A stretch of 45,007 nucleotides of DNA from a phage. Of this stretch, positions 1-45,007 are shown piece after piece. Each line of letters starts with the position of its first letter. Positions within the stretch are counted from its first letter, which is position 1. Below the pieces are notes generated by a model, which saw only the letters and a program-made list of their open reading frames with translations, made no database searches and had not been told where the DNA came from. The translations under genes were made by a program, and so were the position numbers. The stretch lies in assembly GCA_014469095.1 (NCBI GenBank), contig GCA_014469095.1_4330.1. One strand, written 5' to 3'.

Positions 1-30
1 AAAAAAAATCCCGGCTGGGTCAGGGCCGGG
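1..30 (-). terminator. Rho-independent terminator closing the leftward lysis operon
   Basis: Inverted repeat CCCGGC/GCCGGG (approx 10-15 and 25-30) followed on the minus strand by a T run (plus 1-8 is A8); lies 66 nt past the endolysin stop. Confidence 0.6.
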
Positions 31-96
31 ATAAAACTGGAGAGCAGAGGGATGGAGCAGGAGGTGATTTAAGTATCGTCGGATTAGTCTTATGTG

Positions 97-2999: not shown

Positions 3000-3030
3000 A
3001 TTCTGCCTCTCCTCTCGTTTGTGTAAATGA

Positions 3031-3059
3031 ATAGTATCCTATTCTTCCCCAGCGTGCAA
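3031..3059 (-). promoter_or_regulatory. Sigma70-like promoter, type A (TTGCAC-N17-TACTAT) with dyad core AATAG-N4-CTATT
   Basis: Minus strand reads TTGCACGCTGGGGAAGAATAGGATACTATTCA; near-identical to the elements at 4155, 27560, 37114 and 38953. Confidence 0.55.
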
Positions 3060-3935: not shown

Positions 3936-4120
3936 CACTTCACCCCTTTGAATTTAAAATTGTTGCCGATGAGTGTTAAATTATCTCTGAAAGCGTAACC
4001 ATGTTTCTTTCGTACAAGACCCCATACGTCTACAGCGGTACTATATTCATCCTCATTCTGGGTAACTATTACGTACTGTCCGCCGCGTTTTGTTTTAACC
4101 AACTGACCCTTCTTAAACAT
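3935..4120 (-). CDS. Hypothetical basic protein, 61 aa
   Basis: ORF track 3935..4147; ATG at 4120; first gene downstream of the 4155-4183 promoter. Confidence 0.5.
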   Translation of the reverse strand: MFKKGQLVKTKRGGQYVIVTQNEDEYSTAVDVWGLVRKKHGYAFRDNLTLIGNNFKFKGVK

Positions 4121-4154
4121 AACCCTCACCCCTCTGTCTTGTTTCAATAAGTGA

Positions 4155-4183
4155 ATAGTATCCTATTATGTTGGGGTGTGCAA
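4155..4183 (-). promoter_or_regulatory. Sigma70-like promoter, type A (TTGCAC-N17-TACTAT)
   Basis: Minus strand reads TTGCACACCCCAACATAATAGGATACTATTCAC; heads the leftward small-gene block. Confidence 0.6.
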
Positions 4184-4242
4184 GAGAATAGTTACGTTGC
4201 CGTTGTGATTCTTTCGTTTCTTAAAAGAGTACGCAACGCAGT

Positions 4243-4262
4243 GGGTGGGCGTTAGCCCACCC
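4243..4262. other. GC-rich perfect hairpin in the 0.4 kb non-coding spacer
   Basis: GGGTGGGC-GTTA-GCCCACCC, 8-bp stem, no adjacent T run; function unknown. Confidence 0.4.
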
Positions 4263-4558
4263 CAGCGGAGTGAAGTACTCTCTACCTCGCCCACGGCAAC
4301 TATAGAAACTTTTAATTATCAGATACTTAAGAGATATGCTGCCGATGAGAATAGAGCTTGCCCAGGGCAACCGGAGATACTTAGAAAAGAAAGTTACGGT
4401 AATTTTTATGTTCAGTAATCTGCCGCTTAACACTTCGCTTGCGCTTTGGCGCAGCTGCGTTTCAAGCGGGTATTACAAGGTGAACAAGAATCAAAGTAAC
4501 TAAGATATAGAAGCACCTTAAACGAAGATTTTCATAATGTCAATAGGTGTGATTATGT

Positions 4559-4587
4559 TTGATTTCCCATTATTCGCAATGTATACT
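4559..4587 (+). promoter_or_regulatory. Sigma70-like promoter of the rightward early operon
   Basis: TTGATT-N17-TATACT about 30 nt upstream of the ATG at 4620; lacks the dyad core of the other promoters. Confidence 0.5.
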
Positions 4588-4619
4588 TGGTTTCGTTAAC
4601 TGATAATGAGGGTTTGAGA

Positions 4620-4772
4620 ATGGTTACTTTGACAGAAGAACAGTTGAAAGAGTTGCTGATAGAAGCGTGGTTTAACGGGCATAACGAGAGCAGATACTGC
4701 CCTAATAAATACGGCACAGCTACAGTGTTCGCACGGGAAACAATTAAGGAGATTAAAGATGACGCAGAATGA
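4620..4772 (+). CDS. Hypothetical protein, 50 aa
   Basis: ORF track 4587..4772; the TTG at 4587 lies inside the predicted -10, so the ATG at 4620 (SD GAGGG) is preferred. Confidence 0.45.
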   Translation: MVTLTEEQLKELLIEAWFNGHNESRYCPNKYGTATVFARETIKEIKDDAE

Positions 4773-4929
4773 AGTAGCTGAGCGTATCGGGGTTACTCGT
4801 CGCACATTGAATAACTGGTTAAAGAATGGGAAATTCCCGGATTGCTGTATCCGCATTATGGGTCGCCGTCAGCCAGGTACGTTCGACCCGGAGAAAGTGG
4901 AAGCGTGGATTAAGGAGAACGTAAAATGA
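4759..4929 (+). CDS. AlpA/excisionase-like HTH DNA-binding protein, 56 aa
   Basis: Not in track; MTQNEVAERIGVTRRTLNNWLKNGKFP... has the layout of AlpA-type HTH regulators; SD AGGAGA; stop overlaps the next ATG. Confidence 0.5.
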   Translation: MTQNEVAERIGVTRRTLNNWLKNGKFPDCCIRIMGRRQPGTFDPEKVEAWIKENVK

Positions 4930-5159
4930 CCGAGTTCCAGTCACGCGTATTTACGGCAGTAGTTTCGTTAACACGTAAAAAAAGGTCATGCAGCGTTATC
5001 GACTTGCGCCGCAGTTATTTTAAGTACTATAGTTCAGCCATTATTGAAGGGTCGTTGAAGGTACTTGTTAAAGCCGGTGTCGTGAAAAATGTTGGCGGGA
5101 AATATAGTGCCGTTGCAGAAGTTCGCGGAATGACAGCTACTTTAGAAGACCTGGAATAA
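4926..5159 (+). CDS. Hypothetical protein, 77 aa
   Basis: ORF track; start overlaps the preceding stop. Confidence 0.5.
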   Translation: MTEFQSRVFTAVVSLTRKKRSCSVIDLRRSYFKYYSSAIIEGSLKVLVKAGVVKNVGGKYSAVAEVRGMTATLEDLE

Positions 5160-5176
5160 AAGAAAGCCCCGACGCG

Positions 5177-7504
5177 GTGAACGCCGAGGCTAAATTACTT
5201 GCTGAAGGAATATACAATATGTCCGATGTAATTTTATCCTACTCGTGGTCCCGTCGCAACGCGCGGGCCGAGAAAAAGGATATAAACGTCAGAACCACAC
5301 ACACGGCAACACTGGACGACCTGAAAGAGTTAATCCAGCCGCTCGATGCTGTTCGTGACGGGATTAACCCGAAGACCGCCCCCGGATATATCACTGCTGC
5401 GTGCGACTCTACGCACGGCACCGTAAAAGACCCGGAAACCGGAGACTTTAAGCAAGCGCGTAAAGGCTTCTTCTACCGCTGCGACGCGTCTGTGACCAAA
5501 TCGTCGCTGGCATATCTGGACTTCGACAGCGCGACGCCGGAAGAGTATCAGGAAGCTGTGCGTCTGGTTAAGCGCAGCCGCCGGGCTATGTGTCTCTATA
5601 CCACGGCATCACATACCGATAAGTCTCCGCGCTTTCGCGTCGTCATGCCGCTGGCCCGTCCGGTTGAAGGTGGGGGCATCATCCGCGTTCGCCACGGATT
5701 GCTTGAGCACTTCTTCAAAGGCATGGGTGCCGACCGCAGCGGGTTCACTCTTTCGCAACCGATGTACCTGCCGCCGGTCGGCTCTCAGGTTATCTGGTCG
5801 CGCCGCAACGACCTGATTGACCCGGACGAGTTACTGGAAGGCATCCCGGATTACGAGGTGAGCAGCGCATCGGATTACCAGATACCGGAAGAACTGCGCA
5901 CCACGTTTACCGACGCATTCGAGGCACTGGCGTTCGAGTACGGTGGCGTCATGACGCCCCGCGGTCTGAAAATGCCTGCCACGCCAGAACATGCAGAAAA
6001 CTACAGCGACCCGACGCCACGCCCGGACGACTTCCTGCTGTGTTTCCCGCGTGAAGGGTACGAAGCACCTAACGTAACCATGATTCACGACACCGACATT
6101 ACGGCAACCGAAGGCATGTCACCGAAAGATGTGTGGAAGTATGCGTGCGATGCGACCGGGCTGCCGTTCAGTGAAGTCGCTGAGGCAATTGGCTGGGGCG
6201 CGCGGGAGTCCGTTTCATGCAGCCTGGACGACCTGGAAGACGACGAGGACTCAGAAGAGGACGAGTTACCAGAACCGGTAAAGGCTGATTTCGTCGTTGA
6301 GGGGTACATGCCGTCGGATTGTATCTGGGATATTGTCGGGGAATCCGGCACGTACAAATCATTCTATACGCTGGGGATGATGTACCTGAGCGCCGCCGGG
6401 TACCGGTTTGCGGGGGCTGACACCCAACGTTGCCACCATTTCTATATTGACGGCGAGGGTGGTGCAGCTACACGAACACGTATTGATGCACTCGCGGCTA
6501 AATATGGCGAGGAAGGTAAAGATTATGTACATGTCATCGATATGGGCGAAATACTCGCTACGCATGGTGATAAAAAAATTCCAGCTCTAATCCGCAGGAT
6601 GCGCGAAACCGCAGGGGATGAACCTATTGGCATGGTTGCCTTCGACACCCTTAACCAGACGCTGGCCCTGACGATTGATAAGTTCGACGAGAACAGTTCA
6701 TCAACGGCAATCGGTATGGGTAAAGTTATCGCCATCCTGAAAGAAGTGCGCGATGCAACTAAAGCCGCTGTCGGTGTCGTTCACCATACTCCGAAGGGCG
6801 GAAAGAAAGCCCGCGGCAGTGGAGCATTGTATGCGGGTGTCGACGTGGAACTGACAATCGAACGCGCTACCGACCGTCAGATAAACGTATACCACTCTAA
6901 ATTTAAGCACGGTCCGCAACAGAAGACGGTTGGCATGGTACTGGAGTCTGTACAGTTCCGTGAAGCACCGCCGCCGAAAGAGTACCGCGCGGTTGAGTTC
7001 CTCGGTAGCACAGAGGAATACGGCACAATAGTAAACCTCGACCTGCCTGAGCCGCACAAGGCGCTTGTATTGATGCCGTGGGGCTTCGAGCCATTCAAGA
7101 CCGACGAGGAGAAAGAGAGGGAAGAAGGGTTAACTAACGAAGGTAAACAAAATGTACGTAAAACCATAGAGAACGCCGTCAACAGTTCCGAGGCCACGAT
7201 ACTCGCGGCGTTTGAACTGGCGGAGGGGACCTACAACGGCAACGAGGGCATCACGGTATCCGCAGCGAATAAGCTCGCGCAGTCTGACCCCAACGCAAAG
7301 GCGTTTAACTCCAAAGAAGCCATAGAACGCGGGAAGATTAAGAAAATGGTTGAGGCTGGGTATCTTGTTCCGGGTACTGACGAAAACAATCAGATAATCC
7401 CAGGCCGTTACAGACTGAACACCATGATAACAGATAACAAGATTCCGAAGACAATATACGAGCCGAATGAAATGCTGACAGTGACCGAGGAGGATTTGGA
7501 ATGA
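5177..7504 (+). CDS. Putative DNA primase/helicase (primase-like N-terminal region plus RecA-like NTPase core)
   Basis: ORF track (GTG 5177; ATG 5219 with SD GAAGGA is the alternative); N-terminal LDFD and SHTD motifs suggest an archaeo-eukaryotic-type primase; C-terminal GESGTYKS, AFDTL and VVHHTPKG resemble RepA/DnaB-like cores, though the P-loop is non-canonical. Confidence 0.55.
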   Translation: MNAEAKLLAEGIYNMSDVILSYSWSRRNARAEKKDINVRTTHTATLDDLKELIQPLDAVRDGINPKTAPGYITAACDSTHGTVKDPETGDFKQARKGFFYRCDASVTKSSLAYLDFDSATPEEYQEAVRLVKRSRRAMCLYTTASHTDKSPRFRVVMPLARPVEGGGIIRVRHGLLEHFFKGMGADRSGFTLSQPMYLPPVGSQVIWSRRNDLIDPDELLEGIPDYEVSSASDYQIPEELRTTFTDAFEALAFEYGGVMTPRGLKMPATPEHAENYSDPTPRPDDFLLCFPREGYEAPNVTMIHDTDITATEGMSPKDVWKYACDATGLPFSEVAEAIGWGARESVSCSLDDLEDDEDSEEDELPEPVKADFVVEGYMPSDCIWDIVGESGTYKSFYTLGMMYLSAAGYRFAGADTQRCHHFYIDGEGGAATRTRIDALAAKYGEEGKDYVHVIDMGEILATHGDKKIPALIRRMRETAGDEPIGMVAFDTLNQTLALTIDKFDENSSSTAIGMGKVIAILKEVRDATKAAVGVVHHTPKGGKKARGSGALYAGVDVELTIERATDRQINVYHSKFKHGPQQKTVGMVLESVQFREAPPPKEYRAVEFLGSTEEYGTIVNLDLPEPHKALVLMPWGFEPFKTDEEKEREEGLTNEGKQNVRKTIENAVNSSEATILAAFELAEGTYNGNEGITVSAANKLAQSDPNAKAFNSKEAIERGKIKKMVEAGYLVPGTDENNQIIPGRYRLNTMITDNKIPKTIYEPNEMLTVTEEDLE

Positions 7505-7815
7505 ATATTTACGATTTTATAGATAACCCGTTTAAAGCAGTGAAGGCAGGATACCGCCCGTCATACCTGACATGTGTTTCCGCTGTAAGCAACAACTGGT
7601 GGACTTTTTGTGTGTATGCAGCGGGGATTTTTGCGGAGTTTAAAGACATTTTAGACATGACGCTGGCAGAGATTATAAAGTGCCTTTTCAAATTAATTAT
7701 ATCGATAACTATTGTTATAAGTTTTCCTGTAAGTGCGTGGTTTCTCGCCTGGATTCAGTACCTGAACGTGCAACACACTATTAAGAATTTGGAAGAACTC
7801 GATAAGTTGCTATAA
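7501..7815 (+). CDS. Small membrane protein, 104 aa
   Basis: ORF track; several hydrophobic stretches; last gene before the terminator. Confidence 0.5.
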   Translation: MNIYDFIDNPFKAVKAGYRPSYLTCVSAVSNNWWTFCVYAAGIFAEFKDILDMTLAEIIKCLFKLIISITIVISFPVSAWFLAWIQYLNVQHTIKNLEELDKLL

Positions 7816-7820
7816 AAAGA

Positions 7821-7839
7821 AAGGGGCTTTAAGCCCCTT
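7821..7839. terminator. Bidirectional intrinsic terminator between convergent genes
   Basis: AAGGGGCT-TTA-AGCCCCTT perfect palindrome with T-rich flanks; overlaps the stop of the HTH gene. Confidence 0.65.
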
Positions 7840-8044
7840 CACCTAACGCCAGCCACTTGGCGTCTACTTCCAGAACTTCCGCCAGTTTGAACAGCGTTGC
7901 CGGGCGGACGTCCTGAGTTACTCCAAGTGCCAGTTGGTTAATCGCGCCCTGGGAAACGCCGGTCAGGGCCGCCAAACGGCGCTGGGAGATGCCGAGTTCT
8001 TTACGGCGTTGTTCTACACGGATACCTAGTTCAGATGGTTGCAT
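7829..8044 (-). CDS. XRE/Cro-type helix-turn-helix transcriptional regulator, 71 aa
   Basis: ORF track; LGISQRRLAALTGVSQGAINQL is a classic XRE HTH; SD AGGAG; transcribed opposite to the flanking early genes. Confidence 0.8.
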   Translation of the reverse strand: MQPSELGIRVEQRRKELGISQRRLAALTGVSQGAINQLALGVTQDVRPATLFKLAEVLEVDAKWLALGEGA

Positions 8045-8064
8045 GTCAATTACTCCTTAGTCAG

Positions 8065-8094
8065 TTGATATGTGAATAGTACCATATTAATTAT
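8065..8094 (+). promoter_or_regulatory. Promoter/operator element with dyad core; its complement carries TACTAT for the HTH gene
   Basis: TTGATA-TGTGAATAGTACCATAT-TAATTA; the core GAATAGTACCATATT overlaps a minus-strand TACTAT about 30 nt upstream of the HTH gene SD. Confidence 0.4.
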
Positions 8095-8108
8095 TTTAGA
8101 AAAGCCCA

Positions 8109-8137
8109 TTGACATGTGAATAGTTCGCTATTATAGT
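8109..8137 (+). promoter_or_regulatory. Sigma70-like promoter, type B (TTGACA-N17-TATAGT) with dyad core
   Basis: TTGACA-TGTGAATAGTTCGCTAT-TATAGT; 28 nt upstream of the 8166 ATG. Confidence 0.65.
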
Positions 8138-8165
8138 TAGCCCATACCAAACGAGAGGGGCGGAT

Positions 8166-8393
8166 ATGAACACAATAACGGGAGCCATAGCTAAAGGTTT
8201 TCTAGCAATTTTCGGAGAATCGCAGGAAGTGTGCACAAAACATAAATTTGTACTTTCTTGCGTAGTCGGGGACGAGTTTGATGGGTTCGATAAACTTGTT
8301 GTCTGCGACCATTGCGGGCAAGAAGCTATTCAACACCCAAACGGTAAATTTGAATTAATAGACGATAGCCTTACAGAAGGCGACGGCGAGTAA
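8166..8393 (+). CDS. Small zinc-ribbon-like protein, 75 aa
   Basis: ORF track; C-x8-C and CDHC cysteine pairs; SD GAGAGGGG. Confidence 0.55.
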   Translation: MNTITGAIAKGFLAIFGESQEVCTKHKFVLSCVVGDEFDGFDKLVVCDHCGQEAIQHPNGKFELIDDSLTEGDGE

Positions 8394-8417
8394 CCCAAAT
8401 AAACAGGAGAATAAATA

Positions 8418-8936
8418 ATGTTAGAGAAATTCTTAGTATTACTGGAACGTTTCGTAGTTGCGCATGAACTGATTGCTGCGAACAGTGCACGCCGTACTGA
8501 ACTGCCGAAGGCTATCACGGCGCCATATGGTAAAGACGTCGACAGTGGTGTCGCAGAAACTGCAACAATCACGCCTACTGTTGTAAAAGAAGAAACAAAA
8601 GAAATCCCGGTCGAGGGTGAAGACGTAGTTGACACTAAACCGGCGGAGGAAGAGAAGCCAAAACGCAAGCCGCGTAAAGCTAAAGTAGAGGAACCTGCGC
8701 CAGAACCGGAAGAAGAGAAAGAAGAAGTCGATTACAAGTCTCTGCGTGACCAGATTCAGGCCATCGACGATGTAATTAATGAAGGTCCTAGCGATGCCGC
8801 GTGCGATGATTCTGATGAACTGCTGGAAGAGTTCACAGGTAAGAAGATGAAGATTGCCGCGATTAAAGACGAAGACCTGGTTGAGTACCTGGAACGCCTG
8901 ACAGCAATCAAGAACAAGTATTTCGAAGAAGAATAA
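8418..8936 (+). CDS. Highly acidic low-complexity protein, 172 aa
   Basis: ORF track; about 50 D/E versus about 27 K/R, with one basic patch KPKRKPRKAK. Confidence 0.55.
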   Translation: MLEKFLVLLERFVVAHELIAANSARRTELPKAITAPYGKDVDSGVAETATITPTVVKEETKEIPVEGEDVVDTKPAEEEKPKRKPRKAKVEEPAPEPEEEKEEVDYKSLRDQIQAIDDVINEGPSDAACDDSDELLEEFTGKKMKIAAIKDEDLVEYLERLTAIKNKYFEEE

Positions 8937-8943
8937 CTATCTC

Positions 8944-8964
8944 GCGGCCTTCGGGCCGCTTTAA
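8944..8964 (+). terminator. Intrinsic terminator/attenuator
   Basis: GCGGCC-TTCG-GGCCGC followed by TTTAA. Confidence 0.5.
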
Positions 8965-8979
8965 CTGAGGGTCGGAATT

Positions 8980-9252
8980 ATGATTTACCAACTCTACCGA
9001 GCCGTCGACAGGCGTGATAACACAGAGGCGCTATGGCTATTGCGTGCTCCGTCCGGTGCGCACCAGATGGAAGAGATGGCGTACTTAGGAAAAGTACCAC
9101 GGCCTAAAGATATAGGCCGTCACGTGTCACAGATTAAGCGCACAACTTTCGCCAAGCCTGACTTTTATGTCTTCGAGTCGATGTATGGGTGGGCCATGCA
9201 CTGCGACCATAAGACACGACATTTAATTGACCAGTGGGAGAACAGGGTATGA
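8980..9252 (+). CDS. Hypothetical protein, 90 aa
   Basis: ORF track. Confidence 0.5.
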   Translation: MIYQLYRAVDRRDNTEALWLLRAPSGAHQMEEMAYLGKVPRPKDIGRHVSQIKRTTFAKPDFYVFESMYGWAMHCDHKTRHLIDQWENRV

Positions 9253-9506
9253 ATTGGGTTAGCGTAAACGAAGCACTACCAGAGTCAAAAGATGATTCTG
9301 TTTTAGTTTGCTCAGTAGACGGAAGTAAATGTGACGATAATGGGTTCCCGGAAGGCGGAATTGATTTTGTGCATATACAGGACTATTTCGACGACATTAC
9401 TGCTGGGCTGGATGAAAACGGAAATCAGTTATATACGAAACGGTATATCGAGATGGGTATAACACACTGGATGTATTTACCAGAACTACCGGAGGAGGCT
9501 AAATAA
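9249..9506 (+). CDS. DUF551-like phage protein, 85 aa
   Basis: ORF track 9234..9506; ATG at 9249 overlaps the upstream stop; NWVSVNEALPE...VLV...THWMYLPELPE. Confidence 0.5.
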   Translation: MNWVSVNEALPESKDDSVLVCSVDGSKCDDNGFPEGGIDFVHIQDYFDDITAGLDENGNQLYTKRYIEMGITHWMYLPELPEEAK

Positions 9507-10744
9507 TGATTCTAAAAGAACGAGGCGGCAATAATGATGTACACGCCTTACTGTCACCGTCAGGCGCTAAAAAGTGGCTGTCATGCGCTGCGTCGCTGGC
9601 GTGTGAAAAAGATACCCCTAACACGTCGGGTAAAGCCGCTGTATTAGGAACCGCCATGCACACCATAGCTGAGGTCCATCTCAACGCCTATATACGCGGC
9701 ACTGCGTTGCCGTTGGAGCGTGAAGTCGGCGCTTACGTACTGGATGAAGGCAAAGGTCAGATTAAGGCGCTAATCAGCCCGATGAAAGGCGCGGTACTGA
9801 TTACGGCGGACATGATTGAGCAGGTGCGCAAGTACACCGACTACTGCAAAGCGATTATAGACGTAGCGACTTACGCCAAGCTGGAAATGCGTGTCAATCT
9901 TACTGAGGTATTGCATCCGGGGTATGAAGGCGTTGAGACGTTCGGAACCGCTGACCTCGTTGCTGTCCAGGAACTGGCAAACACCGACGAGCACATGCTC
10001 ATTATCGGCGACCTGAAAACAGGGCGGCATCGCGTCGAAGCGAAAGAAAACAAGCAGCTTATGCTTTACGCTCTCGGTGTTTATCGTCGACTCAAGAGAC
10101 GTTATAACATAACAACCGTTCGTCTGGTCATCTTCCAGCCTTACGCTGGGGGCGCGACAGAGTGGGACATCTCGGTTGAAGGACTGGAACTGTTCGCTAA
10201 GTTCGCACAGAAACGCGCGCTGTTAGCGCTTGATGCGTATTTCCGTGGCAAGAAGAACCTGAAAGCGTCGGACTTCAAGCCATCGGTAGATGGTTGTCAG
10301 TGGTGCCGGTTCTCTGAACAGTGCGCCGCGCGTACAAAGACGGTTAACTCTGTGCTGGCGGAAGAACTGGAGGACGACTTTGCCCTGGAACTTACGCCGG
10401 AGCAACTCGTAGCTGAGTATGAGAAGTTGCCGTTGTTGCGCCAGCACATCGACAAGGTTGAGAAAGCGATGGCTGCCGCGTTGCATTCCGGTAAGAAAGT
10501 GCCGGGGTACAAGCTGGTTGAAGGCCGCCCGGGTAATCGTGCGTGGAAAGATGCAGAGAAAGTGGCTGGCAAGTATGGCATAGCGCTAATGAAGCAAGTG
10601 CTCATGACGCCAACCGAAGCGGTTAAAGTCATACCGGAAGAAGAACTGAAAGACTTCATTACCCGTAAGCCAGGCGCACCATGTGTTGCAACGGCAGACG
10701 ACAAACGTCCTGAGTGGAATAGGGTAACAGAGGAGGATTTATAA
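9506..10744 (+). CDS. PD-(D/E)xK exonuclease, Cas4/RecB-like, with C-terminal Fe-S-type cysteine cluster
   Basis: ORF track; IIGDLKTG nuclease motif, N-terminal Cys (WLSCAAS) and CQWCRFSEQC; SD GGAGGAGG. Confidence 0.7.
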   Translation: MILKERGGNNDVHALLSPSGAKKWLSCAASLACEKDTPNTSGKAAVLGTAMHTIAEVHLNAYIRGTALPLEREVGAYVLDEGKGQIKALISPMKGAVLITADMIEQVRKYTDYCKAIIDVATYAKLEMRVNLTEVLHPGYEGVETFGTADLVAVQELANTDEHMLIIGDLKTGRHRVEAKENKQLMLYALGVYRRLKRRYNITTVRLVIFQPYAGGATEWDISVEGLELFAKFAQKRALLALDAYFRGKKNLKASDFKPSVDGCQWCRFSEQCAARTKTVNSVLAEELEDDFALELTPEQLVAEYEKLPLLRQHIDKVEKAMAAALHSGKKVPGYKLVEGRPGNRAWKDAEKVAGKYGIALMKQVLMTPTEAVKVIPEEELKDFITRKPGAPCVATADDKRPEWNRVTEEDL

Positions 10745-10947
10745 TGATTCAAGTAAATGAAATGCCCACAGATAAAGATTTTGTGATGATATGGCGCTGG
10801 GGCGGTTATATCCATTCGGAATCGTTTACGTTCCTGAACGGCACGATGGTGCGATACAACCATGTGGAGGATGAATTCGAACCCGTTGATATGAATGATT
10901 TCGAGAACATAGTCCGTATTGCGAAATTTTATTTGACACCTGAATAG
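10744..10947 (+). CDS. Hypothetical protein, 67 aa
   Basis: ORF track; start overlaps the nuclease stop. Confidence 0.45.
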   Translation: MIQVNEMPTDKDFVMIWRWGGYIHSESFTFLNGTMVRYNHVEDEFEPVDMNDFENIVRIAKFYLTPE

Positions 10948-10961
10948 TTAGCTATTATAGT
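10933..10961 (+). promoter_or_regulatory. Sigma70-like promoter, type B (TTGACA-N17-TATAGT) with dyad core
   Basis: TTGACA-CCTGAATAGTTAGCTAT-TATAGT; overlaps the 3-prime end of the upstream ORF. Confidence 0.6.
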
Positions 10962-14230: not shown

Positions 14231-14511
14231 CCCCGGAAGGCAAGATTCAGAAATACGCAAAAGAGCGATTCGAGGCCATTGGTGGCCTCGTTCGCAAGAT
14301 GGCATTTGAAGGCCGGCGAGCCGCCATGGACCTGCTGGTAATTCTCCCCGGCGGTATCATCTGGTTCGTCGAGATTAAGAAAGACGAAAACACGAAGCCT
14401 GACCCCCACCAGTTACGCGAGCATGAAAGATTCCGTAAACGCGGTGCAAATGTTTTTGTCGTTGGTTCGTTTAAACAGGTTGACGACCTAATAGCGAACT
14501 ATTATAGTTAG
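14227..14511 (+). CDS. VRR-NUC domain nuclease, 94 aa
   Basis: ORF track; DLLVILPGGIIWFVEIKKD...PHQLREHERFRKRGANVFVV has the PD-(D/E)xK layout with EIK. Confidence 0.65.
   Translation: MTPEGKIQKYAKERFEAIGGLVRKMAFEGRRAAMDLLVILPGGIIWFVEIKKDENTKPDPHQLREHERFRKRGANVFVVGSFKQVDDLIANYYS
14480..14508 (+). promoter_or_regulatory. Sigma70-like promoter, type B (TTGACG-N17-TATAGT) with dyad core
   Basis: TTGACG-ACCTAATAGCGAACTAT-TATAGT; overlaps the 3-prime end of the VRR-NUC gene. Confidence 0.55.
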
Positions 14512-27452: not shown

Positions 27453-27559
27453 TCTTTAATCCTTTGGTTAAGAGGTTACTGGTTAAAGGAAATGCGCCAG
27501 ACGGGAACCACCCGCTTTTCGTGTGCGACACTAGGCGCAAAATTATTCTAGCACACTAC

Positions 27560-27588
27560 TTGCACACCCCAATATAATAGCGTACTAT
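27560..27588 (+). promoter_or_regulatory. Sigma70-like promoter, type A (TTGCAC-N17-TACTAT) driving the rightward cassette
   Basis: TTGCAC-ACCCCAATATAATAGCG-TACTAT-TCAC. Confidence 0.6.
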
Positions 27589-27630
27589 TCACTTACACCA
27601 ACGATGTTATCTCAAATCAGGAGTTATGTT

Positions 27631-32392: not shown

Positions 32393-33006
32393 CAGGCGGC
32401 CTCCAGTCTCGAAATAACCAGTAGCGCGGACGGTGCCGTGCCCCATGCAGTTACAGTAGCCACCTGCGGGTATACGCCTCCGAAGTTAGTCCCGGCGCTA
32501 TCTCGCATAATCTGAACGGCGAATGTTTGCCCGGCGGTTGGGTTAATCACTACACGGGATTCAATCGGGATTGTGGTGTCCGCGCTTACCAGTTTCGTGG
32601 CGGCTGGCGAGCCGTACTGAGCGCCGTTTACTAAAATACGTGATAGCAGGATTGACGTTCCGCTGGCCCCGGTGCGTCCCGCTTGTAACTTGATGCGAAC
32701 GGCGTAGTTACCCGCGGTGTTGAATGTAACCAGCCCCGCAGCATTAATCATTACCGGGTCAGATGCACTACCCTGAGCAGAGCCGAACGATACCCGCAAC
32801 GCCGTATCTACTGCGGTAGGCGCTTGCGCTACTGTCGACGCAGCGCGGAGAACTTCAACCTCTTTAACACCCGGAGTGGCGTAAATAGGTGAGTCAGCCA
32901 TCTGGGTTAATACCCCGCGCAACTTCGCAGGCGTAATAAGTCCGGTCGTGTTGTCCGGTAGCTCGGAACCGATTAGCGTGAATATCTCTGATTTAGTCTT
33001 CGCCAT
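32392..33006 (-). CDS. Structural protein, 204 aa
   Basis: ORF track; Ala/Thr/Gly-rich; position only. Confidence 0.45.
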   Translation of the reverse strand: MAKTKSEIFTLIGSELPDNTTGLITPAKLRGVLTQMADSPIYATPGVKEVEVLRAASTVAQAPTAVDTALRVSFGSAQGSASDPVMINAAGLVTFNTAGNYAVRIKLQAGRTGASGTSILLSRILVNGAQYGSPAATKLVSADTTIPIESRVVINPTAGQTFAVQIMRDSAGTNFGGVYPQVATVTAWGTAPSALLVISRLEAA

Positions 33007-34103: not shown

Positions 34104-34403
34104 TTAGCTTACGGTTCCTGCGTTTTTAAGCGCAGTCAACAGATTTGCTACGGTAGTGCGCAGCGCGGTAACATCGGTTCGGAGTTTGTTGTACTCCGCT
34201 ACAAGGGCGTCGAACTCTTCCTTAGTCGGTGCCGCGGCGGACTGCGCTCCTTTACCAGCGGTAACCGCCGCAGGTGCGGCTACAGTAGCTGACTTTTTAA
34301 CCCCACCAACTACGCTGGTAGTAGCAGGCGTGACTGGGATATCAAAGTCGCCGAAATCGACATTCTGAAGGCTGCGCGGCAAGCCTTTTCCGGTCTTGAC
34401 CAT
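34104..34403 (-). CDS. Hypothetical structural protein, 99 aa
   Basis: ORF track; directly downstream of the major capsid gene. Confidence 0.5.
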   Translation of the reverse strand: MVKTGKGLPRSLQNVDFGDFDIPVTPATTSVVGGVKKSATVAAPAAVTAGKGAQSAAAPTKEEFDALVAEYNKLRTDVTALRTTVANLLTALKNAGTVS

Positions 34404-34427
34404 AATTTACCTCTTAGTAAATGAAAA

Positions 34428-34445
34428 GAGGGACCGAAGTCCCTC
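34428..34445 (-). terminator. Hairpin attenuator/terminator after the major capsid gene
   Basis: GAGGGAC-CGAA-GTCCCTC followed on the minus strand by TTTTCATTT. Confidence 0.5.
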
Positions 34446-34462
34446 TCGATTATAGCTTAACC

Positions 34463-35512
34463 TTAAGCACCGACACCAGTTACCAGGAAGGCAATCGGTA
34501 CGTGCTTACGGTCAACAACACGGCTCCAGTTAGAGGCGTTCGCCAGGTCCTGCCAGGAAGCAGAACGTGCGACAGTCTCGGTGCCGTTACCGGTGATTAC
34601 TGCGCTGGTGAAGCTGTAACCAAACGGATGTAGCAACCAGGTCTTACGGGTCCACAGGGTTTCAACGCCGCCGCCGTTGCCGCGGGACGCTTCGCGCTCG
34701 TATTCCAGCGGGTTGGACGGAGAACCTTCACCGTAACCGATAGCGCCGTTGCCGAAGATGATGGAGATGAACTTACGGGTCGGGCCAGTGCCGACTACGG
34801 TCATGCTGTCGTCAACAATCACGCGGTAGCCCTGGTAGGTGGCGAACATGGTGTTGTTGTCCGCGTCACGGATGAAGTCGATAAGCTGCTGCTTACGTGC
34901 CTGCGCATAAACGAAGCTATGCATCGCGATAGCCCCCAGCACTTCACCGCCGTTGCCCATCAGAGCATCGCCCATAGTCTGGGTAGCGTCGATGAACGCG
35001 CCCACATCGAAGCCCAGAGTAGCAGACACGTCGATAACCATGTCGTTCTGCTCGTGGTAAGCATCGGTAGCAGCTACGTTGTCGTTGTACAGACCGAGCG
35101 CGGTAGCAATCAGACGGCGTTGTGCCTGGCGCTGCCAGAAGTTATCCAGACGGGACGCTACGGATTGCAGCGGGTTCTGGCGGGTCAGTTCGACAGTCAA
35201 ATCCGCCTGACCGAAACCTTCGTTCAGGTATGCAACGCGGGCCATCATCTCGCCGGTCTGCACGTTACGCGGGGTGGCGATGTCCTGGTATACGTCGTTC
35301 GAGTAGTTCGGCTCGATAGAGGTATCAATCGCTTTCCAGAAAGGAATATTAGCGACGTTGGACGGGCCGCGGGCAATCTCGGCGGCGTATGGGGTCGGGG
35401 TCAGAATACCAGACTGGAAGAACGCGGTTTTTTCTACCGGGTCCTCGGTCATATAAGACGCCAGGACCGGGATGTTGCCAGTTACGATATCGCCGATAGT
35501 GGTAATTGCCAT
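34463..35512 (-). CDS. Major capsid protein
   Basis: ORF track; 349 aa, immediately downstream of the scaffold gene, followed by a terminator hairpin. Confidence 0.8.
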   Translation of the reverse strand: MAITTIGDIVTGNIPVLASYMTEDPVEKTAFFQSGILTPTPYAAEIARGPSNVANIPFWKAIDTSIEPNYSNDVYQDIATPRNVQTGEMMARVAYLNEGFGQADLTVELTRQNPLQSVASRLDNFWQRQAQRRLIATALGLYNDNVAATDAYHEQNDMVIDVSATLGFDVGAFIDATQTMGDALMGNGGEVLGAIAMHSFVYAQARKQQLIDFIRDADNNTMFATYQGYRVIVDDSMTVVGTGPTRKFISIIFGNGAIGYGEGSPSNPLEYEREASRGNGGGVETLWTRKTWLLHPFGYSFTSAVITGNGTETVARSASWQDLANASNWSRVVDRKHVPIAFLVTGVGA

Positions 35513-35514
35513 TA

Positions 35515-36216
35515 TTATTTCCTCAGGGCTTTAAGTTGCCGTTCAAATTCGGCAGGGTTCGATTTATACAGGGCTAAACGCTCTGCTTCACTCATGTCTT
35601 TAAACGCTGGTGCGGCCCCGCCGCCTTTGCTACCGGAAGCCCCGCCGCCGGAAGCTGCATTTGCTTTGATCAAATGCGAAAACGCCTTGTGTTCGCGCAG
35701 GTATTTGCGGAACTGTTCCGGGTCAGTCGTGATTACGTTACCGTCTGCACCAACAAACTTAGTAACCACATCATCGCCTTCGAACTCAGTCTTAACGAAC
35801 GGCGCAAGAATGTCCACTGCTTCCGGGGTAATAAAGTCACCCGCGAAAGAGCCTAGCACCGCTTTACGTTCGCTGCCGAGGATACGCTCTGCCATTCTGG
35901 AGATGCGACCGTCTTTCTCGGCTAACACCGGGTCATACTGGCTACGAATCGTCTTTTCGAACTCGTCCATCTTACCAGCGGCTTTTAACGCCTCCTGGTG
36001 CGCGCGCTGCCGTTCTTCTTCGGCCTCTTTTGCTTTGCGAGCGGCTTCTTTCTTCTCCGCCAACAATGCTTCCTGATTAGCCTTAAGCCCAGCAACTTCT
36101 TTCTCAATCAGCGCCTGAACTTCTTCAGCGGTGAACATTTTCGGCGCGTCACCGCCACCAGCTTTATCTTCTGCCCCAGCTTCTTCCTGGAACGGATAAC
36201 GTAAAAAACGATTCAT
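35515..36216 (-). CDS. Scaffolding protein
   Basis: ORF track 35515..36270; ATG at 36216; Ala/Glu/Lys-rich coiled coil directly upstream of the capsid gene. Confidence 0.65.
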   Translation of the reverse strand: MNRFLRYPFQEEAGAEDKAGGGDAPKMFTAEEVQALIEKEVAGLKANQEALLAEKKEAARKAKEAEEERQRAHQEALKAAGKMDEFEKTIRSQYDPVLAEKDGRISRMAERILGSERKAVLGSFAGDFITPEAVDILAPFVKTEFEGDDVVTKFVGADGNVITTDPEQFRKYLREHKAFSHLIKANAASGGGASGSKGGGAAPAFKDMSEAERLALYKSNPAEFERQLKALRK

Positions 36217-36277
36217 AGTCAGTATGTCCCCTGGACGTTGGAACCCGGGCCACCCGGATTTACATGTCAAGAATAAA

Positions 36278-36305
36278 TTATTCCAACATGCAAGGCAACT
36301 ATTCC
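36278..36305. repeat. Repeat block TTATTCCAACAT plus CAACTATTC, copy 1
   Basis: Both short motifs recur at 37045-37072, flanking the spanin genes. Confidence 0.5.
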
Positions 36306-36562
36306 AGAATATTCCTCACGTAATCCTGCAACATAAACACTTTCAGCCTCAGTTGCCGTACACATTCAGCGTTCTGAACGTCGATAGCTAAATCTTCGTC
36401 GGCATCGCTACTCGGCGGTGCCAGCTTGCACGGCGGCTGCATCATCGTCGTATCCGGGGATGGAGTTGGCGTTTGCGACGGCGCGGGACTTGAGCTGCAC
36501 GCGCTCAGGGTCAAAAGCGCACACACTGCGACCAGGCGTTTTAATGTACTTAACGACTTCAC
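36299..36562 (-). CDS. Rz1: o-spanin (Rz1-like outer-membrane lipoprotein), overlapping the Rz gene in the +1 frame
   Basis: ORF track; GTG start with SD GAGGTGA; signal peptide ending in lipobox LSAC; Pro-rich mature region; starts inside the Rz gene and extends past it. Confidence 0.65.
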   Translation of the reverse strand: MKSLSTLKRLVAVCALLTLSACSSSPAPSQTPTPSPDTTMMQPPCKLAPPSSDADEDLAIDVQNAECVRQLRLKVFMLQDYVRNILE

Positions 36563-36794
36563 GGGTGATCACCTCTGATTTCGTCTTGCCTTCGTTGTCA
36601 GCGGCTGCGGCCTTTGATTCGTCCTGCTGCTGCCGTTGTGTTTTCTTAGTCATCTCGGCCTGTGCTTTCTGCTGTTGCTGAGAAACGAGATTCGCCCGGC
36701 CTTCGTTCCAGCCGATGCGGTACTGGTAGATGCCGTGTGTGTAAGCCAGGATGATGAAACATGCTCCCGCTACGACAGTTGCTTTAAGATTCAT
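36408..36794 (-). CDS. Rz: i-spanin (Rz-like inner-membrane protein)
   Basis: ORF track; N-terminal TM helix then a Gln/Lys/Ala-rich helical periplasmic region; SD AAGGAG; carries the embedded lipoprotein gene. Confidence 0.65.
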   Translation of the reverse strand: MNLKATVVAGACFIILAYTHGIYQYRIGWNEGRANLVSQQQQKAQAEMTKKTQRQQQDESKAAAADNEGKTKSEVITREVVKYIKTPGRSVCAFDPERVQLKSRAVANANSIPGYDDDAAAVQAGTAE

Positions 36795-37044
36795 GTTTCT
36801 CCTTTCTCGATAAGTAAAGCCCCGCCTTAAAGCGGGGCGCTAGTCCTTATCATTTAAACATAGAAACGGCGTAATCTCAGTAAACCAGTTACTTTTTACA
36901 CAAGCAATAGAGTATGGCCCGTCCGAACGCGTCAGCGTAACTACACTCAGGACTTACGTCCCGCTCCGTTACCTGCCCGCGCCGCGGTCGCTTGTTCATA
37001 CTTCACAAGCTCAGGTGGAGCTTATCATATTTTTAGTGAAAAGT

Positions 37045-37113: not shown

Positions 37114-37142
37114 TTGCACACCCCAATATAATAGGGTACTAT
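37114..37142 (+). promoter_or_regulatory. Sigma70-like promoter, type A (TTGCAC-N17-TACTAT)
   Basis: TTGCAC-ACCCCAATATAATAGGG-TACTAT-TCAG, then SD GCAGGAGGTG. Confidence 0.65.
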
Positions 37143-37169
37143 TCAGTTAACTTAAGCAGGAGGTGAAAA

Positions 37170-37373
37170 ATGTATGCAATTTGCGAAGTAGTTCAAGAGT
37201 TCGATGAAGAGTTCGACGGTGACTTGTGCCGTGTTAAAAAGGTTCTGCAGGTTTTCCCTGACGTAAACTCCGCTAACAAGGCATTAGAGCTATTCGAACC
37301 TGGAAGATATGGGGATTATGACACTGTTCTGAGGGTGGTGCATGAACAGAAATTAGGTACAAAATTCCGTTGA
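37170..37373 (+). CDS. Hypothetical acidic protein, 67 aa (single-gene cassette)
   Basis: ORF track; own promoter and terminator, opposite in orientation to the surrounding head genes. Confidence 0.6.
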   Translation: MYAICEVVQEFDEEFDGDLCRVKKVLQVFPDVNSANKALELFEPGRYGDYDTVLRVVHEQKLGTKFR

Positions 37374-38908: not shown

Positions 38909-38952
38909 ATGCCCTCCTGTGGTATCGCCAGTGTAACGCATAAAAATAATAT

Positions 38953-38981
38953 TTGCAGACACCAACATAATAGGGTACTAT
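38953..38981 (+). promoter_or_regulatory. Sigma70-like promoter, type A (TTGCAG-N17-TACTAT)
   Basis: TTGCAG-ACACCAACATAATAGGG-TACTAT-TCAT. Confidence 0.6.
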
Positions 38982-39016
38982 TCATTGCATCGAAACGAGA
39001 GATAAGGAATTTAGAA

Positions 39017-39298
39017 ATGGCTAAATATTCAAACAGTGATTTATATCTTACATGTGTATGTGTTGATAGCGTTCAGGTAGAGTGTGTCGCTCAGGAGTGG
39101 ACTTCCAGTGAAGAAGATATATTTAAAATAGGGCGCAAGTATTGGCTACACCACGGGTGGTTGACTAGACCTAACGGGGACTCCGATGTGGAACTTTGGT
39201 GGGTAGAGTATCGCGGGCGCTCGTATATCTGTTGGCCCGAAACGAAAAACGGCGCCACCAGTTACACCGCTACCAGCACTGGATTTACATTTGTATAG
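39017..39298 (+). CDS. Hypothetical Cys/Trp-rich protein, 94 aa (single-gene cassette)
   Basis: ORF track 38909..39298; ATG at 39017 with SD AAGGAA; own promoter and terminator between the portal and head-morphogenesis genes. Confidence 0.6.
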   Translation: MAKYSNSDLYLTCVCVDSVQVECVAQEWTSSEEDIFKIGRKYWLHHGWLTRPNGDSDVELWWVEYRGRSYICWPETKNGATSYTATSTGFTFV

Positions 39299-39303
39299 AT
39301 AAA

Positions 39304-39330
39304 AAGGCCCCTTATGGGGCCTTAATTTTA
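39304..39330. terminator. Bidirectional intrinsic terminator (AAGGCCCC family)
   Basis: AAGGCCCC-TTAT-GGGGCCTT then AATTTTA. Confidence 0.75.
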
Positions 39331-39345
39331 TCTCTGTTGTTGGTC

Positions 39346-40824
39346 TTACGCAGGCAGCGCTTCCTGCTGTGCCGACTGCGGAATCTCTCCTGCTACCTGA
39401 GCAACAGCACCTAACGGCAGCGGCGCGTCCTCAATAGCGTTCTGAATGTCCTCGTCAGTCCAGTCAGTTATCCCCGCCTTGCGCAACGCAGCGTAGTAAG
39501 CGGTAGCCGGTAACAGGCCAGCGTTAATATCCGCCATCCACTGAGCGCGTTCCTGAGCGGTCATTGGTTGCAGGAAGAACTCCATATTCAGCTTGAACTC
39601 AATCTCTGTGCCTTCACGCAGCCCCAGCATCGCCGCTACCCAGCGCAACGCATCGGTATACGCCATGCTTACGTTACGTGCGATTGTTGCCATAACGGAC
39701 GTATCAGCACCGCGTTGTAGACGGGCCGATTCAGCGGTGATTTGCTGCGTCGGGGTGATAAGCTGCGCACCAATCTGGATGGCCTGATTCTCTTTATCCA
39801 GCATGTTCTGCTTGGCAAGGTTGTTCTCTCCTGCCTGAACCAGAAACGCATTACCGCCGTAACCAATGTTATGGCCTGAACGCGACCCCATGCGCACGCC
39901 GTGTGGGTTGGCTTCTTTCCACTGTTCCATGCTCATGTTCTCGCCCGGGGCGATGAACAGCGTGGGCTGACCTACAACGAAGCTGGACTCCTCATTGTCC
40001 GCGCTGTTTCGGAAATGTCCGATATTTAGCTCGGCCAACGGCAGCAAAGGTGCATCATCTATAGTGGCGTCGTTGTTGCTCGCCCCAATGAACGTGAACG
40101 GGATTTTGCCGCGTAACTGTTCGCCGAGTTCCGGGAAGATTTCGATTACTTCATCCTGAGCGCCACCTTCGGCATCGAAGCGGTAAATGCGCTGGCGGTA
40201 ACGGCCTTCAATCAGGTCGAGGACACGATATTGCTCGCCGAACTTTGTTTCGAACTCTGCGCCAGGTTCTGAGTATTCCCATACCTCACGCAACACGACC
40301 ATCGTCACGCGGTTAACGGATCCGATGCGGGTGAGTCTCCAGTTGATAATGTTCTCCGCGGTATAGAATGCGATTACCGGGTTTAATAATCCCGCGTTCT
40401 GCTCTGCCGCCGTTGCTGCGGCTGTTTCCGGGGCGTCCACCAGCAACCCGCCACGGCCTATCGAGTTAATCTCCATCAGCGTATCCTGCGCGTGCTGCCA
40501 CAGCCCGACACCTGAACCGTCAGCGTTGTGCAACAGGTACTCAAGTTCAGGCGGGATAATCTGCTCAGGGTCTTTGCGCATCACTGACCCCGTCATCCCC
40601 GCCAGCGTGCGTTTGGTGAAATTGTAGCAGATAGCGCCGTTCTCATATTCTTCCTGTCGCTGTGCTGCGTAGGTCTGGTCAGGCTCGTTCTTCCCGACGT
40701 TGCGCAGATAGCGGATAAGGTCGCCTTCAAGAGCGTGGCGTACCTTCTGCCATTTATCGAAGTGATGCAGCCATTCCCGGTGTTTTGTCTTAACACCCTG
40801 ATTCTGACCGTTCATAGTTAACAT
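39346..40824 (-). CDS. Portal protein
   Basis: ORF track; 492 aa, immediately downstream of the terminase large subunit. Confidence 0.75.
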   Translation of the reverse strand: MLTMNGQNQGVKTKHREWLHHFDKWQKVRHALEGDLIRYLRNVGKNEPDQTYAAQRQEEYENGAICYNFTKRTLAGMTGSVMRKDPEQIIPPELEYLLHNADGSGVGLWQHAQDTLMEINSIGRGGLLVDAPETAAATAAEQNAGLLNPVIAFYTAENIINWRLTRIGSVNRVTMVVLREVWEYSEPGAEFETKFGEQYRVLDLIEGRYRQRIYRFDAEGGAQDEVIEIFPELGEQLRGKIPFTFIGASNNDATIDDAPLLPLAELNIGHFRNSADNEESSFVVGQPTLFIAPGENMSMEQWKEANPHGVRMGSRSGHNIGYGGNAFLVQAGENNLAKQNMLDKENQAIQIGAQLITPTQQITAESARLQRGADTSVMATIARNVSMAYTDALRWVAAMLGLREGTEIEFKLNMEFFLQPMTAQERAQWMADINAGLLPATAYYAALRKAGITDWTDEDIQNAIEDAPLPLGAVAQVAGEIPQSAQQEALPA

Positions 40825-44956: not shown

Positions 44957-44985
44957 AATATAATAGGGTCGAGGATAATAGTCAA
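44957..44985 (-). promoter_or_regulatory. Sigma70-like promoter (TTGACT-N17-TATATT) for the right-end early block
   Basis: Minus strand reads TTGACT-ATTATCCTCGACCCTAT-TATATT; the plus strand carries a partial core AATATAATAGGG. Confidence 0.5.
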
Positions 44986-45007
44986 CTAGTCATCACAGAA
45001 AATAGAT

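Follow-up and report, generated by a model that had tools for sequence, protein, structure and literature searches.

Positions 8045-8165 of a 45,007-nt stretch of phage DNA (GenBank assembly GCA_014469095.1, contig GCA_014469095.1_4330.1; the whole stretch is referred to as the window) lie between a leftward gene for a small helix-turn-helix (HTH) protein and a series of rightward genes, and carry two copies of a palindromic dyad within overlapping promoter-like elements. With confidence a little above even, we read this interval from its sequence as the control region for a 434-Cro-like repressor of a virulent E. coli phage of the genus Kagunavirus; the dyads would serve as operators and the protein would repress its own promoter and about ten others. 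Whole-genome comparison identified the window as a complete, circularly permuted Kagunavirus-type (Guernseyvirinae) genome. The 1.5 kb around the locus matches Escherichia phage vB_EcoM_SHAK7858 at 99.9% identity and many Kagunavirus phages at 85-98%, and a relative with 83 annotated coding sequences (CDS) is 99.9% identical over window positions 7400-8900 and 87-99.6% identical in aligned blocks elsewhere. In annotated relatives, a rightward helicase-primase operon is followed by the lone leftward HTH gene and then by rightward small genes, an exonuclease, a single-stranded DNA-binding protein (SSB) and DNA polymerase. The HTH gene is labeled "Cro", "transcriptional repressor", "repressor" or "DicA" in these GenBank records, and our literature searches did not find an experimental study of its control region in Guernseyvirinae.

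The HTH gene product is a 71-aa protein that matches the HTH_3 family (PF01381) with an E-value of 3.9e-13 and a score of 49.7 bits against a cut-off of 23. Its best matches among solved structures, obtained with phmmer, are 434 Cro and the DNA-binding domain of the 434 repressor (E ~1e-5, residues 6-68), and its identity to 434 Cro is approximately 40%. An AlphaFold model (pLDDT 77.5) contains five helices, superposes on 2cro with TM values of 0.73-0.79, and also superposes on the 434 repressor, P22 c2, SinR and the controller proteins of restriction-modification (R-M) systems. Taking alignment and model together, we identify the product as a single-domain homologue of 434 Cro with the same predicted fold; it is Cro-sized and has no C-terminal oligomerization or cleavage domain. 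No Kagunavirus variant departs from the recognition helix, GVSQGAINQLALG, or from the segment comprising this helix and the next loop, GVSQGAINQLALGVTQDVR, while the termini drift. The operators bound by phage 434 Cro and repressor have 14 bp and the form ACAA-N6-TTGT, and Gln28 reads their outermost A. This glutamine is kept in the Kagunavirus protein, and the outermost base of the dyad is likewise A.

A word-indexed protein search for the same recognition helix in unrelated contexts returned only Kagunavirus-like proteins, and a scan of a genome collection gave only distant homologues (at most 51% identity) with other helices and no dyad; one of these, with a similar helix start, adjoins a different repeat, ACAGATAT. 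A published Kagunavirus RNA-seq study found the orthologue of the HTH_3 gene, K1B4_004, to be expressed during infection and classed it as "middle", although these classes denote peak time in a 5-120 min sampling series and are too coarse for ordering promoters. The closest record, OR594183.1, is filed under Autographiviridae/Kayfunavirus although its genome is of Kagunavirus type; in it the HTH gene (32743-32958, equivalent to window positions 7829-8044) is unannotated, and a short opposite-strand open reading frame (ORF) is called inside it at 32758-32853.

Upon closer inspection of the intergenic interval, the layout given in a preliminary description of this DNA held up: the HTH gene stands back to back with two tandem rightward promoter elements, each carrying the dyad core, and our coordinates for both elements agree with it exactly, with the upstream element being the weaker. 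A scan of positions 7000-9500, which scored hexamer matches out of 12, found five promoter-like matches in the 2.5 kb compared to 3.6 +/- 1.5 in shuffled sequence. Because this is not above chance, the hexamers alone prove little and the case rests on the repeated core. Exact copies of ATGTGAATAGT occur at 8070 and 8114, each containing the dyad AATAG-N4-CTATT, and the dyad centers are 44 bp apart. There is no third dyad within 8045-8165. The downstream copy is a perfect dyad that fills the spacer of the strong rightward promoter P_R2, the best match in the scanned interval. The upstream copy, which has one mismatch, lies in the spacer of the weak element P_R1 and covers the -10 of the leftward promoter P_L; we refer to the two as candidate operators O_R and O_L, respectively.

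The preliminary description had also proposed that the complement of the upstream dyad supplies a TACTAT -10 for the HTH gene, and our analysis extends this element. The minus strand around P_L reads aatATGGTACTATtcacat, with TGGTACTAT at 8084->8076, such that TACTAT (8081->8076) is preceded by TG at -15/-14 to form an extended -10. The promoter scan demanded a good -35 and missed P_L for this reason, P_L being predicted with an extended -10 and a poor -35. Leftward promoters are found at the orthologous position, equally far from the HTH start codon, in Jerseyvirus SE2 (TTGCGT-17-TACTAT) and Cornellvirus VSiA (TTGTGC-18-TATACT), which supports this choice of -10. An alternative leftward site at 8093-8120 scored 10/12; the last two positions of its -35 vary in 20 and 12 of 37 related contigs and its -10 is not kept in the most divergent relative, and on these grounds we regard it as a less likely, minor possibility. 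That the HTH gene has a promoter of its own, and is not transcribed by read-through, agrees with its being a lone minus-strand gene between plus-strand genes with its own Shine-Dalgarno sequence and terminator, an arrangement that excludes read-through. The terminator makes the gene monocistronic, and the annotation of phage Schulenburg shows one at the equivalent position. The suggestion that the two transcription units compete over the same DNA also stands, in that polymerase at P_L and at P_R1 would occupy the same positions, 8065-8104.

Comparison with the 37 related Kagunavirus contigs, across which the intergenic region is approximately 90% identical overall, separated constrained from drifting positions. 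The P_R2 hexamers are invariant save for one G->T change in the -10, while two bases following the -35 vary in 20 and 12 of the contigs and the linker length changes by 1 nt. The arms of O_R show no deviation in any contig, whereas its center is seen as TTCG, TTCA, TTAG, CTAG, TTTG and CTCG. In O_L all 14 positions are invariant or nearly so, center included; its C->A mismatch, which never varies, supplies the TG of the extended -10, and TGnTACTAT is kept in 37/37 contigs. A frozen center in O_L beside a drifting one in O_R is what would be expected if O_L doubles as the leftward -10. The -35 of P_R1 is altered in 3/37 contigs, and P_R1 is degenerate in Jerseyvirus; by sequence it is the least secure element of the control region. 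Elsewhere among the relatives, three Jerseyvirus contigs (L068, L072 and L073) combine a Jerseyvirus HTH gene and operators with the Kagunavirus leader, TAGCCCATACCAAACGAGAGG, directly after TATAGT. The first gene after P_R differs among Kagunavirus contigs as well, and from these alignments we take P_R to be a recombination joint between genera.

The dyad is not confined to this interval, a point that the preliminary description had missed. Allowing at most one mismatch, AATAG-N4-CTATT occurs 11 times in the genome compared to 1.14 expected, and none of 100 shuffles reached 11. When all perfect dyads with 5-bp arms and spacers of 0-8 were counted, AATAG/N4 was the sole outlier with eight copies, the next best (four or fewer) being GC-rich terminator stems. 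Ten of the 11 copies fall in or at the edge of non-coding gaps, which make up 7.6% of the genome, and every one of the 11 overlaps a sigma-70 core promoter with a -35/-10 spacing of 16-18 bp, so that the dyad marks approximately ten promoters genome-wide. Three registers were observed (Table 1). In class A the order is TTGACA, 4 nt, dyad and ATAGT, with the dyad as the spacer (8119, 10943 and 14490). Class B has TTGCAC, 10 nt and AATAGGrTACTATT, in which the TACTAT within the dyad is the -10; its sites face left at 3030 and 4154 and right at 27576, 37130 and 38969, and the leftward HTH promoter at 8075 shares this register. The third register is seen at 44977, where a dyad-like site encloses the -35 TTGACT. 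The dyad at 27576 appears to be shared by two divergent promoters in the arrangement that the preliminary description proposed for 8065-8094, and both orientations appear to be used. The interval 8045-8165 is the sole gap with two good dyads, which bracket the HTH gene's own promoter; this is the usual layout for autoregulation, as judged from the arrangement of sites.

The arms in class A are neither -35 nor -10 and are nevertheless invariant, which argues for selection on the arms themselves. At the class-A promoter upstream of the SSB gene (10933-10961), too, related contigs keep the arms and both hexamers invariant while the center and linker vary. Invariant arms around a variable center point to a dimeric protein that would read two half-sites. 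Furthermore, a dyad that always overlaps the promoter core, in varying registers, fits steric repression and does not fit position-dependent activation or Q-type loading, making occlusion the more likely mode of action.

Table 1. Coordinates of the HTH genes, promoters, candidate operators and associated signals in the 45,007-nt window.
Feature	Position	Strand	Remarks
Class-B promoter TTGCAC-17-TACTAT	3031..3059	-	-10 inside dyad 3030-3043; leads to Shine-Dalgarno and ATG at 2999
Class-B promoter TTGCAC-17-TACTAT	4155..4183	-	dyad 4154-4167; heads leftward gene cluster
56-aa HTH_17 (excisionase-type) protein, rival candidate binder	4759..4929	+	Pfam HTH_17, 30.8 bits
Intrinsic terminator of leftward HTH transcript	7820..7840	-	9-pair stem GAAGGGGCTTAAAGCCCCTTT then CTTTTTATAG
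71-aa Cro/C1-type HTH gene, candidate repressor	7829..8044	-	ORF; Pfam HTH_3
Shine-Dalgarno AAGGAG of HTH gene	8053..8058	-	invariant in 37 relatives
P_R1, weak upstream rightward promoter-like copy TTGATA-18-AATTAT	8065..8094	+	9/12; function uncertain
O_L, candidate operator AATAGTACCATATT, one mismatch	8075..8088	.	covers P_L -10, inside P_R1 spacer
P_L, predicted leftward HTH-gene promoter, extended -10 TGgTACTAT, poor -35 CTTTTC	8076..8084	-	predicted start ~8069
Alternative leftward promoter-like site TTCACA-16-TAAAAT	8093..8120	-	10/12
P_R2, strong rightward promoter TTGACA-17-TATAGT	8109..8137	+	11/12, best match in 7000-9500; predicted start ~8144
O_R, candidate operator, perfect dyad AATAGTTCGCTATT	8119..8132	.	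fills P_R2 spacer
Conserved leader and Shine-Dalgarno of rightward transcript, CATACCAAACGAGAGG	8138..8165	+	kept though first downstream gene differs among relatives
Genes predicted to be driven by P_R2	8166..10947	+	75-aa Cys-rich, 172-aa, 90-aa, DUF551, DUF2800/PD-(D/E)XK exonuclease and 67-aa proteins
Class-A promoter TTGACA-17-TATAGT	10933..10961	+	dyad 10943-10956; upstream of SSB and DNA polymerase genes
Class-A promoter TTGACG-17-TATAGT	14480..14508	+	dyad 14490-14503; from reading of the flank
Divergent promoter pair around one dyad	27560..27601	.	dyad 27576-27589; rightward TTGCAC-17-TACTAT, leftward TTGGTG-16-TATTAT
Class-B promoter	37114..37142	+	dyad 37130-37143; for lone plus-strand gene 37170-37373 in structural module
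Class-B promoter TTGCAG-17-TACTAT	38953..38981	+	dyad 38969-38982; for inserted plus-strand ORF
Promoter TTGACT-17-TATATT, -35 inside dyad-like ACTAGTTGACTATT	44957..44990	-	dyad-like site 44977-44990; same sequence at equivalent place in SE2

The repeat has been seen before in this group of phages. In the paper on phage fBC-Eco01, the program PHIRE returned the consensus tgAATAGTa-ccTATTat-T in seven copies, which were assigned to promoters of a phage-encoded RNA polymerase, and the paper on VB_EcoS-Golestan lists seven PHIRE sites with their sequences not given. The fBC-Eco01 consensus is the AATAG-N4-CTATT dyad. We rejected the assignment to a phage polymerase, given that no such enzyme is annotated among the CDS of the close relative and that every copy of the dyad is flanked by sigma-70 hexamers.

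We propose the following course of events, in which binding, repression and the order of filling are inferred from the promoter features, from the enrichment, placement and conservation of the dyad, and from the family and fold of the protein. Host RNA polymerase would start rightward at ~8144 from P_R2 and leftward at ~8069 from P_L, and accumulating dimers of the 71-aa protein would then occupy the operators and exclude the polymerase. The perfect O_R would fill first, together with other good operators, lowering expression of the genes downstream of P_R2 and of other operons; these downstream genes, previously described as an early operon, are recombination and replication genes. The imperfect O_L would fill later, at a higher protein level, resulting in negative autoregulation of P_L, and of P_R1 if it is active. 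Since P_L and P_R1 share the same 40 bp, they would be mutually exclusive. With the operator in the core of approximately nine further promoters, the protein would repress or time host-polymerase promoters throughout the genome in the course of lytic growth. A broader version of this proposal is more tentative, and we would give it rather less than an even chance: an orphan Cro-type repressor kept by a strictly virulent siphovirus, with its operator in nearly all (approximately ten) host-polymerase promoters, might set the timing or dosage of the whole lytic program. In this broader version some of the promoters would be divergent pairs sharing one operator and some would belong to moron-like single genes, and an operator variant differing by one base (AATAG versus ATTAG) would have co-evolved in sister lineages.

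Which protein binds the dyad was weighed by comparing lineages. The window encodes a second candidate, a 56-aa HTH_17 protein of the excisionase type. Its identity is 88% to the protein of Jerseyvirus SE2 and 80-99% in almost all of the 443 records from Kagunavirus and Jerseyvirus in which it occurs; Cornellvirus VSiA and phage SE1 lack it. The AATAG arms of Kagunavirus recur in SE2 and in another 12 Jerseyvirus contigs, and we did not find enrichment of the AATAG dyad in VSiA or SE1. These two genomes, which lack HTH_17 and keep HTH_3, instead carry TATTA-N6-TAATA six times each compared to 0.9 and 1.0 expected, a count that none of 100 shuffles reached, and all 12 sites lie within the intergenic gaps of the annotation or at their borders. 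This motif came to light when promoter spacers were read; de novo repeat finding gave nothing informative for the Cornellvirus genome. Because dyads of the same size are enriched in lineages without HTH_17, a protein common to all lineages is the more economical binder, and HTH_3 is such a protein. From its adjacency to two dyads, the geometry of the sites and its presence in all lineages, we consider the HTH_3 protein the probable binder, though not by much. In VSiA (34354-37005) and SE1 (4112-7002) the HTH_3 gene lies on the same strand as, and directly upstream of, the helicase-primase gene; it is probably co-transcribed with it there, an inversion relative to Kagunavirus and Jerseyvirus.

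Several observations weigh against assigning the dyad to the HTH_3 protein. This protein is just 48% identical between Kagunavirus and Jerseyvirus, with four differences in the recognition helix (QGAINQ versus QSLITH), and yet the AATAG arms are the same, whereas the helices of Jerseyvirus and Cornellvirus are alike but their dyads differ (AATAG versus ATTAG). Across the three genera, therefore, dyad and helix do not appear to co-vary cleanly. The control region of the HTH gene in VSiA holds degenerate sites only, and the Cornellvirus-type dyad is not significantly enriched at 5+4+5 resolution. Additionally, one repressor shutting approximately ten promoters, one of them upstream of packaging genes, would make late-gene expression hard to explain.

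The same comparison lends some weight to HTH_17 as the protein that binds the dyad and regulates, perhaps activates, the promoters carrying it, with HTH_3 acting elsewhere. Kagunavirus and Jerseyvirus share the AATAG dyad together with this well-conserved protein while their HTH_3 proteins have diverged, VSiA and SE1 are without both HTH_17 and the AATAG enrichment, and the RNA-seq study cited above classed the HTH_17 orthologue as "early" and most other genes as "middle". The correlation, however, amounts to a single phylogenetic split, and a dyad of equal size is enriched in non-coding gaps even where HTH_17 is missing. The promoter of its own operon (TTGATT-17-TATACT, 4559) has no dyad, the dyad promoters are near-consensus and need no activator, and the three registers argue against activation. 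Moreover, the usual targets of small excisionase-type winged helices are single sites or direct repeats and not palindromes of 14 bp. We consider this explanation unlikely. Slightly less likely, in our estimation, is that no dedicated protein is involved and that the palindrome is a by-product of opposed -10-like hexamers (TACTAT and TATTAT, as in bidirectional promoters) combined with duplication and recombination of promoter cassettes. In favor of this, the arms are similar to -10 hexamers, the dyad at 27576, and probably the one at 8075, seems to work in both orientations, a block of ~35 nt common to the class-B promoters has the look of a copy, and the Jerseyvirus contigs in which a Kagunavirus leader is joined exactly after the -10 mark promoters as recombination joints. 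This would leave unexplained why the class-A arms at 8119, 10943 and 14490, which are not hexamers, are invariant in 37 contigs while linker and center drift, and why the exact 5+4+5 geometry is kept over three registers. A different factor, either another phage protein or a conserved enterobacterial host protein, would account for the same arms occurring in E. coli and Salmonella phages despite divergent HTH_3 proteins, and the phage has other small DNA-binding-like proteins, such as the NinH-family protein annotated in the relative. We found no known host motif that matches the dyad, and the Salmonella-infecting Cornellvirus uses a different one, leaving this explanation with a small probability. 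Among host proteins, CRP was set aside because relatives do not keep the CRP-like TGTGA that adjoins the dyad, and ArgR and Lrp were dropped because their boxes are spaced differently.

Two further explanations concern the kind of circuit, and both seem to us very improbable. The preliminary description had suggested a genetic switch here, and divergent promoters with repeated operators beside a Cro/CI-family gene, labeled "repressor" or "Cro" in GenBank, do recall the immunity (lysis/lysogeny) switch of lambda and 434. That part of the description did not survive: the single HTH gene at the locus encodes one Cro-sized repressor with no second repressor beside it, no HTH domain was found by Pfam or PHROGs in the rightward proteins encoded at 8166-9506, and the operators number two at a distance of 44 bp instead of three in adjacent positions. 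The description had itself remarked that no integrase was visible, and none is annotated among the 83 CDS of the close relative either; published accounts of Kagunavirus report lytic growth without lysogeny genes and call the family strictly lytic. We give equally little credence to the dyad as a loading site for an antiterminator of the Q/AlpA type, which is suggested by the position of the lambda Q-binding element (QBE) and the Pseudomonas aeruginosa AlpA-binding element between -35 and -10 and by an int-alpA RNA match that adjoins one dyad. The dyad is a palindrome found in three registers, the only HTH_17 protein has 56 aa, and no Q-like protein is annotated in the relative. P. aeruginosa AlpA is much larger, contacts DNA through HTH residues 128-142 and sits as a single molecule on an asymmetric 6-bp element; AlpA antitermination, which we had entertained on account of the int-alpA match, was rejected on comparison with the paper describing this structure.

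The Cro-type repressor that we favor has well-known counterparts. Like 434 Cro and its OR region (and also P22 and lambda Cro), the Kagunavirus system has a single-domain HTH_3 protein of ~71 aa, with a conserved glutamine at the start of the recognition helix, and 14-bp twofold sites bearing an outer A, and its candidate operators overlap divergent promoters beside the gene. It differs from the 434 system in having no CI partner or lysogeny module, in the number and spacing of its operators, in its half-site (AATAG, compared to ACAAG/ACAAT in 434), in the occurrence of the operator in about nine other promoters of a virulent genome, and in the divergent transcription of the repressor gene itself. 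The R-M controller proteins C.AhdI and C.BclI, which are among the top structural neighbors, are likewise small HTH_3 dimers that act on palindromic boxes at their own promoter as autoregulated timers; these, however, control one promoter and activate it at low occupancy, whereas the Kagunavirus sites are many and have near-consensus cores. In phi29, a virulent phage that uses host RNA polymerase, the small DNA-binding proteins p4 and p6 time expression at close divergent promoters. Those proteins are unrelated, combine activation and repression with DNA bending, and work within a single control region. The proposed circuit, in which a Cro-type repressor acts on palindromic operators, is of a well-known kind, the less usual aspects being a virulent phage and an operator at approximately ten promoters.

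Phages of the genera Kagunavirus and Jerseyvirus are widely isolated for therapeutic use and are now being adopted as small synthetic-biology chassis, and their transcription program is uncharacterized. If a Cro-like protein does control most promoters, the repeated "PHIRE promoters" would be explained, one repressor and one 14-bp site would offer a simple handle for engineering or attenuating these phages, and the "repressor" annotation that worries therapy safety screens would be shown not to indicate lysogeny. This would be a familiar circuit in a new host family, and the gain is mostly practical.

Two of the class-B promoters precede single plus-strand genes, at 37170-37373 and ~39000-39298, that run against the flow of the minus-strand structural module. 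Both promoters come from the same ~35-nt cassette, cTTGCACaccccaatatAATAGGGTACTATTca, and window positions 38910-39364 are absent from OR594183. By their arrangement these genes look like moron-type insertions that brought a regulated promoter along. On the minus strand, positions 27477-27541 match the Rfam int-alpA RNA (RF02996) at 36.6 bits, compared to a gathering score of 35.8 bits. This match sits in the leader, ~115 nt long, that separates the dyad promoter at 27576 from a minus-strand tail-assembly-chaperone gene starting at 27452, and could represent a structured leader or attenuator for the tail genes. Weak sub-threshold Rfam matches at window positions 1-56 (minus strand) to a Betaproteobacteria toxic sRNA (small RNA) and to anti-hemB were rejected, as the segment amounts to a strong intrinsic terminator hairpin, CCCGGCCC...GGCCGGG, with a U run after it. 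Between the leftward gene cluster and the rightward early operon, positions 4190-4560 form ~370-470 bp of non-coding DNA with GC-rich hairpins such as GGGTGGGCGTTAGCCCACCC, which may serve as an origin, an sRNA or a leader. Finally, a promoter-like TTGCGC-18-TATAGT without a dyad lies at 5004-5033 on the plus strand, inside a 77-aa ORF just upstream of the helicase-primase gene, and has a conserved counterpart at the corresponding position of SE2 (11542, minus strand).

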